This document shows positions 45,653 through 46,365 of a stretch of DNA of 64,000 nt, piece by piece. The stretch lies in the NCBI RefSeq assembly GCF_030013595.1, contig NZ_CP122768.1, one strand, 5' to 3'. Positions within the stretch are counted from its first letter, which is position 1, and the number at the start of each line of letters is the position of its first letter. The translations under genes were made by a program, and so were the position numbers. Under the pieces are notes generated by a model. That model was given only the letters and a program-made list of their open reading frames with translations. It made no database searches and was not told the DNA's origin. Origin of the DNA: Escherichia coli. Lineage in GTDB: Bacteria > Pseudomonadota > Gammaproteobacteria > Enterobacterales > Enterobacteriaceae.

Positions 45653-46042
45653 TCAGGCGGCTGCACCCGCCGTTTTCTCGTACTTACTGATAGTGATCTC
45701 GACCTTCCCTTCCGGGATAACCGGTCCCCACTCCACCAGCATTCTTTTCACCTGACTGTCGTCTTCCCACACACCCGCGTGGGTCAGGGCGTCAAACAGC
45801 GCCTTGTTATAGTTGTCCAGATCGCGGATCCGGTTATCCGGAGGAAACAACACGATCTCCACTGAAGCAGGTGCCGACGTTGGTTTTGGCAGACGACGTA
45901 ACTGCTCAACTATTGCTGCACACGCCGCGCTCTGAAATTTTCGCCCCGCCGCGCTTATCAGGCTCTTACCAGCAAATGCCCCTTTGTTGGGGTGTCGCCA
46001 GTACGTGTTCACGCTGGGCGGGAAAGGCAGGATTAGCTTCAT
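45653..46042 (-). CDS. rusA: Holliday junction resolvase RusA
   Basis: MKLILPFPPSVNTYWRH...DLDNYNKALFDALTHAGVWEDDSQV matches the RusA family. Confidence 0.85.
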   Translation of the reverse strand: MKLILPFPPSVNTYWRHPNKGAFAGKSLISAAGRKFQSAACAAIVEQLRRLPKPTSAPASVEIVLFPPDNRIRDLDNYNKALFDALTHAGVWEDDSQVKRMLVEWGPVIPEGKVEITISKYEKTAGAAA

Positions 46043-46365
46043 ACTTTCAGGCCTCTCTCATGTAACCAGTGGGCTGCACGCAACCTGGCGTTCTCCTCAC
46101 CGGCAAGCAGTGCGCGGATGATACCGACCGCCTCGCTGTCGTCGTCCTTCACCGCGGTATGAAGCGTGATCCCCCGGGCCACGCCACGCTTTATCGTGAT
46201 GACGCCTTTTTTCTCCAGTGCGCGAAGATGCTCTACCGCTGCATTCACTGAACGGTATCCCAGCATGGTTGCCACCTCCTGATTGGTTGGCGGGAAGCCA
46301 CGTTCTTTCTGGTAAGAAATCAGCATATCCAGCACCTGCTGCTGGCATTGAGTTAACGTCGTCAT
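46039..46365 (-). CDS. stand-alone LexA-type N-terminal DNA-binding domain protein
   Basis: QQQVLDMLISYQKERGFPPTNQEVATMLGYRSVNAAVEHLRALEKKGVITI parallels the LexA wHTH ([51 protein letters not shown]); no S24 peptidase domain. Confidence 0.7.
   Translation of the reverse strand: MTTLTQCQQQVLDMLISYQKERGFPPTNQEVATMLGYRSVNAAVEHLRALEKKGVITIKRGVARGITLHTAVKDDDSEAVGIIRALLAGEENARLRAAHWLHERGLKV

Follow-up and report, generated by a model that had tools for sequence, protein, structure and literature searches.

The 64,000-nucleotide stretch of Escherichia coli DNA analysed here (contig NZ_CP122768.1 of RefSeq assembly GCF_030013595.1, hereafter the window) carries, in the nin region of a lambdoid prophage, a gene for a 108-amino-acid protein that contains LexA's DNA-binding domain and lacks its protease domain. 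We call it the LexA-NTD (N-terminal domain) gene. The explanation that we tentatively prefer, while giving it somewhat less than an even chance, is that the product works as a dimer that mimics LexA, cannot be cleaved and acts on SOS-type operators while the phage grows lytically. The existence and the domain content of this protein are already on record. What is new is the SOS-box promoter found before the gene in a sister clade of Klebsiella, Enterobacter and Salmonella phages, which ties the protein family, PHROG 362, to the SOS circuit.

A sequence-only reading of the window had placed a stand-alone LexA DNA-binding protein at positions 46039–46365, and the open reading frame (ORF) was recovered on the minus strand with exactly these limits. 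The gene and its parts, with the predicted local distance difference test score (pLDDT) of the AlphaFold2 (AF2) model, are the following:

46039..46365, minus strand: LexA-NTD gene, a 108-residue ATG-to-TGA ORF with Pfam, NCBIfam, PHROG and PDB matches
46159..46365, minus strand: LexA-type winged helix-turn-helix (wHTH), codons 1–69, from AF2 (pLDDT 85–94) and Foldseek
46144..46158, minus strand: linker T-A-V-K-D, codons 70–74, of low confidence (pLDDT of residues 71–80 averages 63)
46057..46143, minus strand: two-helix hairpin, codons 75–103, with predicted helices at residues 75–88 and 93–103 (pLDDT about 90)

The Pfam family LexA_DNA_bind (PF01726) matches residues 1–65 over its full profile (E = 2.9e-19, 69 bits for a cutoff of 23.7), and PHROG 362, described as 'transcriptional repressor', covers the protein end to end (residues 1–108 on profile positions 1–106, E = 1.6e-59). 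The closest PDB relatives found by phmmer are the N-terminal domain of E. coli LexA (1lea, E = 6.5e-16) and full-length LexA (E about 1e-15), and identity with E. coli LexA reaches 50% over about 68 residues. A 98%-identical copy of the locus bears the Prokaryotic Genome Annotation Pipeline (PGAP) name 'LexA family transcriptional regulator' (WP_000210170.1). No Pfam match to Peptidase_S24 was obtained in the 108-residue protein even at E <= 1, and the NCBIfam lexA equivalog TIGR00498 scored 70.5 bits, below its cutoff of 110.95, with only model positions 1–91 of 203 covered. Since the S24 protease is absent, the protein is predicted to be incapable of the self-cleavage stimulated by activated RecA (RecA*), as the sequence-only reading had maintained.

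The AF2 model, computed with 21 family representatives below 80% identity as input (mean pLDDT 87), places helices at residues 6–22, 28–35 and 40–52 and strands at 56–58 and 66–68, RSVNAAVEHLRAL being the recognition helix. The best Foldseek matches of the wHTH are 3jso, 3jsp and 1lea (root-mean-square deviation (rmsd) 1.0–1.3 Å, 48–51% identity), and it superposes on the LexA–DNA complex (3jso, 3jsp) with an rmsd of 1.0–1.1 Å over 67–69 residues at 49–51% identity. An alignment with the LexA wHTH along the whole protein had also been claimed; this holds for residues 1–69 and fails for residues 75–103, which form a hairpin that LexA lacks. These residues are unlike LexA, and a weak extension of the HMMER alignment across the LexA hinge reaches residue 90, pairing A88-G89 with A84-G85, the bond at which LexA is cleaved; other family members do not conserve this dipeptide, the model has a helix here and there is no catalytic domain. 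The linker stretch differs in length among family members. All full-length homologues, the most distant of them about 40% identical, keep the hairpin, with the consensus EAVxxIRALLAGExxARxRAxxWLxxxG, in which A97 is invariant and L101 nearly so. A hairpin of 30 residues has no core of its own, and we therefore infer that it pairs with that of a second copy, possibly into a four-helix bundle, which would make it a candidate dimerisation module.

In LexA, the DNA contacts of helix III are made by Ser39, Asn41, Ala42, Glu44 and Glu45 (PMC3091678). Four of the five are kept in the window protein (RSVNAAVEHLRAL), Glu44 being replaced by Val; His46, Leu47 and Arg64-Gly65 of the wing are also kept, and Arg28 is replaced by Asn. 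Among the 21 family representatives, in LexA numbering, Ser39, Arg64 and Gly65 are kept in 21 of 21, Asn41 in 20 and Ala42 in 18. Binding of the window protein to SOS boxes is plausible because four contacts out of five and Arg64-Gly65 are kept and the model fits DNA-bound LexA at 1.0 Å.

In the sister clade (clade B), the LexA-NTD proteins have 118–135 residues and match the PHROG 362 profile (P0273 and P0191). There the module does not follow Dam and starts its own transcription unit behind a strong canonical SOS box. Two Enterobacter loci (L012 and L013) have a sigma70-like promoter, TTGCAA-17-AATAAT, with ACCTGTACATTCATACAGTA right after the -10 element, then orfX and the LexA-NTD gene; in a Salmonella locus (L016), a terminator is followed by TACTGTTTATATATACAGTG and then by orfX and the LexA-NTD gene; and in Klebsiella (L002–4), TACTGTTTATTTATACAGTA lies in the dinI promoter, followed by dinI, orfX and the LexA-NTD gene. 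No same-strand terminator separates the SOS-box promoter from the gene in these examples, and the canonical SOS box alone is the palindromic element shared by the three promoters. The partner orfX (PHROG 1813, 45–55% identity) is conserved directly upstream of the gene in clade B and is absent from the window. Box scores, here and below, come from a position weight matrix (PWM) of about 21 E. coli boxes, and are relative and uncalibrated. In a further set of 80 Klebsiella-type viral contigs from IMG/VR, 73 of which have sufficient upstream sequence, a box scoring 15 bits or more stands in the 1.5 kb before the gene in 69 of the 73 loci, many of the contigs being close relatives, so that a few independent lineages, and not 69, are represented. 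These boxes stand mostly at -615 and include several spacer variants. The prediction for the sister clade is thus that the LexA-NTD gene belongs to the SOS genes; it stands upstream of Q and often shares a transcript with dinI, a known SOS modulator, and this co-transcription points to an SOS-related role that fits feedback at SOS boxes.

Two further observations concern these transcription units. The antiterminator gene Q of the Enterobacter, Salmonella and Klebsiella phages may be directly under host LexA control, because the SOS-box promoter heads a unit that ends in a Q-like antiterminator, in the order orfX – LexA-NTD – (RusA) – DUF968 – Q (L012 5531–8413 in Enterobacter, L016 5476–8195 in Salmonella, L002 5385–8243 in Klebsiella). 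A 67-residue ORF (PHROG 1212) is, like orfX, a conserved partner in the units of the three genera.

The LexA-NTD gene occurs in 2222 of 5426 complete E. coli genomes (about 41%, counted at a coverage of at least 80%), in up to four copies each, mostly at 95–99% identity and invariably annotated as 'LexA family transcriptional regulator'. Between 51 and 61 deposited phages carry it, including SfV (orf42), SfII, SfIV, cdtI, mEp460, whose copy is labelled 'LexA DNA binding domain protein', and Stx2a, Stx2c and Stx2k phages. Profile searches found full-length relatives of 105–135 residues in Citrobacter, Salmonella, Cronobacter, Klebsiella, Enterobacter, Atlantibacter, Kosakonia and Hafnia, and the family was found solely in phages and prophages of Enterobacteriaceae. 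The ratio of non-synonymous to synonymous substitution rates (dN/dS) is 0.05–0.15 relative to the copies of SfV, cdtI, mEp460 and HN257 and to 86%-identical copies from viral contigs; the gene is under strong purifying selection. Because of these ratios, and because the core residues are the same in homologues down to about 40% identity, the match to LexA is not due to chance. The gene belongs to a conserved module that crosses genera, LexA-NTD – (small ORF) – RusA – (KilA-N or Rha) – DUF968 – Q, and this nin-type placement upstream of RusA, DUF968 and Q is seen in the window, in SfV, cdtI, mEp460 and mEp390 and in the Cronobacter, Salmonella, Enterobacter and Klebsiella loci. No other neighbour accompanies the family as constantly as RusA, although the Klebsiella module lacks it. 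The search for representatives also returned proteins of 140–350 residues with two tandem LexA_DNA_bind stretches (P0133, P0134, P0148, P0151, P0152 and others), which are possibly single-chain pseudo-dimers.

In the window, the gene occupies the tenth place in a series of genes on the minus strand, and its Pfam-annotated neighbours place it between the replication genes and Q, in agreement with the nin-region location assigned to it by the sequence-only reading. The surrounding genes are:

50592–51284, plus strand: cI-like repressor, helix-turn-helix (HTH) and Peptidase_S24 (ORF and Pfam)
50234–50494, minus strand: cro-like HTH gene (Pfam)
49690–50241, minus strand: CII/CP76-like gene (Pfam and PGAP-annotated relative)
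between 49544 and 48321, minus strand: DUF4222, Rha and a small ORF (Pfam and PGAP-annotated relative)
47506–48324, minus strand: HTH_36/DnaD_N replication protein gene (Pfam)
47015–47509, minus strand: PerC (yfdN-like) transcriptional activator gene (Pfam)
46362..47048, minus strand: phage Dam (N6-adenine) methyltransferase gene (Pfam Dam, E = 1.2e-45), whose start according to PGAP is the window equivalent of 47015
45653..46042, minus strand: RusA Holliday-junction resolvase gene (Pfam RusA; synteny)
44836–45633, minus strand: KilA-N gene (Pfam)
43839–44834, minus strand: DUF968/HNH-like gene (Pfam; synteny)
43459–43836, minus strand: antiterminator Q gene, Phage_antitermQ (Pfam; synteny)

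The cI-like and cro-like genes diverge from a 97-bp control region within an immunity region at 50234..51284; the LexA-NTD gene shares the strand of cro, 4 kb further downstream, and cI is on the opposite one. At 46362–46365 the TGA stop of Dam and the ATG start codon of the LexA-NTD gene overlap as ATGA, GGGAG preceding this start codon by about 9 nt, and at 46039–46042 a second ATGA joins the TGA stop of the LexA-NTD gene to the ATG of RusA; no non-coding DNA lies directly beside the gene in the window. No promoter-like site was found on the minus strand upstream of Dam or of the LexA-NTD gene, and on this strand the interval from cro to the gene contains several terminator-like sites. We also considered the dam promoter annotated in SfV (TTGCGC-15-TACGGA) as evidence of expression in the lysogen, and rejected it: it is weak, and its -35 element is mutated in the window. 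Synthesis of the protein is most likely confined to an induced or infecting phage, in which the early-right operon is derepressed, and does not take place in the silent prophage, because the gene has no promoter of its own, shares ATGA overlaps with Dam and RusA and sits in the early lytic operon opposite cI.

The same operon encodes a PerC-family activator two genes upstream, which brings the accessory regulators in it to at least two; both could have host genes as targets. The 383-residue ORF at 48542–49693 (minus strand) is over-extended, as the near-identical HN257 locus is annotated by PGAP with a 297-residue Rha and an overlapping 59-residue DUF4222 gene. A PADLOC scan gave no meaningful match to a defence system.

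Three strong PWM sites were found in the window, at 12311–12330, 12339–12358 and 50801–50820, two of them upstream of a dinI-like gene:

12311–12330, plus strand: SOS box CACTGTTTATTCACCCAGTT, 18.9 bits
12339–12358, plus strand: SOS box GACTGTATACAAACACAGTA, 20.2 bits
12372..12591, plus strand: dinI-like gene, apparently frameshifted (32-residue ORF at 12372–12470, 33-residue ORF at 12490–12591)
50801..50820, no strand assigned: near-consensus SOS box TACTGTATGCAAAAACAGTA in the linker codons of cI, between HTH and S24, 22.8 bits

The LexA box that the sequence-only reading had cited at 12341–12356 is real, and is the second of the two tandem boxes that occupy 12311–12358, at the prophage end adjoining prfC. 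The product of the gene at 12372..12591 resembles DinI in sequence, and an intact DinI is annotated at the equivalent position in relatives (cdtI, mEp460, mEp390), with the same pair of boxes upstream. The box inside cI is kept in HN257, in mEp460, in SfII (as a perfect TACTGTATATAAAAACAGTA) and in the 72%-identical allele of phage Eeyore; that the box persists amid diverging flanking codons suggests that the DNA motif is itself under selection. It could act as a LexA roadblock within cI or belong to a hidden SOS-regulated promoter, and no convincing -35 or -10 element was found around it on either strand. It is a possible target of host LexA, and of the LexA-NTD protein if LexA specificity has been retained.

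Another strong SOS box (e.g. TACTGTAAAAATAAACAGTG) is located at or just before the start codon of the N6_N4 DNA methyltransferase gene that separates Q from the lysis genes in the late region, in SfV, cdtI, mEp460, HN257, Salmonella prophages and Eeyore (L008 34170, L009 44083, L010 41021, L001 10274, L014 10310, L015 10444, L016 8739, L179 20325). No site above 8 bits was found at the equivalent position of the window prophage. Just past the late methylase of the Salmonella prophage L016, an AcrVA2-like gene stands beside a Cas1-domain gene (9794–11390). An exact CTGT-N8-ACAG in the window, CTGTGGTTACTTACAG at 49575–49590, in the gap between CII-like/ymfL and DUF4222/Rha, was considered as a LexA-controlled Rha promoter and rejected; with a score under 8 bits and no counterpart in the Cronobacter loci, it is probably a chance occurrence. 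CTGT/ACAG half-sites counted over the window at spacings of 0–20 bp exceeded shuffled sequences at no spacing.

According to the explanation that we tentatively prefer, the LexA-NTD protein would be a RecA-insensitive LexA paralogue composed of a wHTH, a five-residue flexible linker and a two-helix hairpin, the last of which would take over dimerisation from the missing S24 domain. It would be synthesised only while the early lytic operon is on, its translation being coupled to that of Dam upstream and RusA downstream. The dimer would bind CTGT-type, SOS-box-like operators and, being uncleavable, would re-impose repression at SOS-box promoters once the LexA of the cell has been destroyed; its putative targets are host SOS genes and, in the phage, the promoter of dinI and the cI-internal box. 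In favour of this explanation are the domain and fold shared with LexA, the contact residues that are kept, the purifying selection, the conserved hairpin, the SOS-box promoters of the sister clade and the restriction of PHROG 362 to Enterobacteriaceae, since its hosts, as far as is known, all use CTGT-N8-ACAG. Moreover, the N-terminal domain of LexA, when isolated, binds operators specifically but weakly, and dimerises on the DNA. The suggestion, made in the sequence-only reading, that the prophage modulates SOS-regulated genes is plausible as an idea, provided that 'induced phage' is read for 'prophage', the gene having no promoter of its own and being part of an early lytic operon.

Several observations weigh against this explanation. 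The residue data cut both ways: the window subfamily is very LexA-like, yet base-contacting positions vary across the family. Glu44 is kept in none of the 21 representatives, and the residue there is non-acidic in all 21; the position of Glu45 is occupied by Glu in 11, by Asp in 5 and by a non-acidic residue in 5; Arg28 is kept in none. A LexA mimic under selection at an invariant operator of the host should keep Glu44, Glu45 and Arg28. A linker-joined AF2 dimer of the window protein (two copies joined by (GGGGS)6, with a paired alignment) reached a predicted template modelling score of 0.35, and the pLDDT of the hairpin fell to about 72; this model, which is not confident, speaks neither for nor against dimerisation by the hairpin. 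In the 80 loci of the E. coli/Cronobacter clade, the 2.5 kb before the gene never contain a box that scores 15 bits or more, and the ±7 kb set of this clade contains only 14 such boxes in all. The clade-B recognition helices are among the least LexA-like (NAVLLHL, NTVFIHL), for which reason host LexA alone can explain the boxes of that clade. Eeyore has the cI, methylase and dinI boxes and no LexA-NTD homologue, and SfV has the LexA-NTD gene and the methylase box only. A strict link, in which the boxes inside cI and before the late methylase and dinI would be operators specific to the LexA-NTD protein, was rejected on these two phages, and because of them the boxes appear to be host-LexA sites in their own right and only potential targets of the LexA-NTD protein. 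Literature searches by annotation phrases, accession and Pfam id found no experimental study of the family, and the 'LexA family transcriptional regulator' of papers on Stx phages refers to CI repressors.

The variation at positions 44 and 45 of the recognition helix and 28 of helix 2 is what co-evolving pairs of regulator and operator would show, and agrees with a phage-specific transcription factor of diverged specificity, which would bind a non-SOS site of the phage or the host and activate or repress a lytic promoter, for example to time Q or the late genes. We regard this as the main rival, nearly as probable as the LexA mimic. It has a precedent in gp6 of GIL01, a Bacillus thuringiensis tectivirus; this truncated LexA homologue, the only phage-encoded one to have been characterised, activates the late promoter P3, at -43.5 of which it binds a different palindrome, GaCACAC-GTGTGaC, that overlaps the -35 element (PMC6182141), an activity that also counts against a LexA mimic. 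The different dimerisation module would probably alter the spacing of half-sites, and the LexA-NTD gene is always one to four genes upstream of Q. However, no candidate alternative operator was found, the clade-B promoters sharing just the canonical SOS box; the gene has no non-coding DNA beside it in the window; and helix III of the window protein (SVNAAVEHL) is far closer to that of LexA (SPNAAEEHL) than is that of gp6 (SHKTAHRYL).

It is improbable that the protein is an adaptor whose wHTH or hairpin binds RusA or replication proteins, DNA-bound host LexA, RecA or orfX, and which, having no operator, would influence recombination or the SOS switch in this way. Such a role would suit the tight translational coupling to RusA in most lineages and the retention, in the window subfamily, of residues aligned to the hinge and cleavage region of LexA, and the position of the partner orfX directly upstream in clade B recalls the adjacent genes gp6 and gp7 of GIL01, where gp7 binds LexA. 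The most conserved residues, however, belong to the DNA-reading surface (S39, N41, R64, G65 and I66, invariant or nearly so), and the Klebsiella module does without RusA. A truncated version of a host gene among the accessory genes of the nin region might also be a decaying, functionless remnant of a captured lexA, but this is effectively refuted by selection and conservation, namely by the dN/dS ratios, by the length and the novel C-terminal module conserved over at least five genera, by the 2222 E. coli genomes with mostly 95–99% identical copies and by the intact start/stop coupling.

In a wider and, in our opinion, rather unlikely version of the LexA-mimic explanation, PHROG 362 proteins would be phage-made, damage-proof LexA substitutes that close SOS-box promoters again after cleavage of the host repressor. 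In Klebsiella, Enterobacter and Salmonella, where they would be SOS-induced together with DinI and a partner ORF, they would form a negative-feedback loop on the host SOS response; in the lytic phase they would keep both the SOS functions of the host and competing SOS-inducible elements silent, and shut the SOS promoter that drives Q. The SOS response governs mutagenesis and tolerance to antibiotics as well as the induction of prophages and of the Stx and Cdt toxins, and carriers of the LexA-NTD gene include Stx2-, Cdt- and serotype-converting phages. If SOS boxes are indeed occupied without cleavage, the family would be a widespread, overlooked brake or rewiring element of the SOS response, and an SOS-box binder of this kind, a natural non-cleavable LexA, could become a tool. 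If instead the protein has its own operator, it would be the second independent case, after GIL01 gp6, of a LexA DNA-binding domain reused as a regulator of the lytic cycle.

Compared with E. coli LexA (TIGR00498; 1lea, 3jso), the window protein has the same wHTH, and Ser39, Asn41, Ala42, Glu45, His46, Leu47, Arg64 and Gly65 are identical. Unlike LexA, it has neither the S24 peptidase/dimerisation domain nor Ser119 and Lys156, the hairpin standing in the place of the C-terminal domain, and its gene is phage-borne and part of a lytic operon. If it binds SOS boxes, it would resemble LexA(Ind-) mutants and the LexA 1–84 fragment as a binder that RecA* cannot inactivate. LexA(Ind-) mutants are full-length proteins, and the 1–84 fragment is short-lived, being removed by ClpXP through its new VAA C-terminus; the window protein differs from both in ending with GLKV and carrying an extra module of its own. 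Several homologues end with -GSAA, -GAIA or -GITA, which resemble the Ala-Ala signals used by ClpXP, as on the 1–84 fragment. A wHTH followed by short helices is also seen in YtrA-type GntR and MarR/MntR-like regulators, to which the whole-length model has weak Foldseek matches (MepR, MntR and YtrA, E about 0.005–0.03). These matches have an rmsd of 8–11 Å and an identity of 13–23% and are accompanied by no family-level sequence match; they do no more than suggest a way in which the hairpin might bring about dimerisation.

The nearest functional parallel is GIL01 gp6, which is likewise a phage-encoded LexA DNA-binding domain without protease, non-cleavable and expressed from an early gene. A profile alignment matches gp6 to residues 4–67 of the window protein with a probability of 96.8% and 32% identity, and no similarity was detected by BLASTP. 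With 66 residues, gp6 has no C-terminal hairpin, and its recognition helix is different; it derives from a Gram-positive LexA, sharing 44% identity with the N-terminal domain of B. thuringiensis LexA (PMC6182141), and belongs to a tectivirus, whereas PHROG 362 belongs to lambdoid phages. The site of gp6 and its role as an activator have been demonstrated, while PHROG 362 is known from sequence. Linked just through the shared profile of the LexA N-terminal domain, the two are independent truncations. Relative to phage-encoded truncated LexA homologues, PHROG 362 adds an independent origin, a conserved hairpin, a lambdoid nin setting and, in the sister clade, control by an SOS box.

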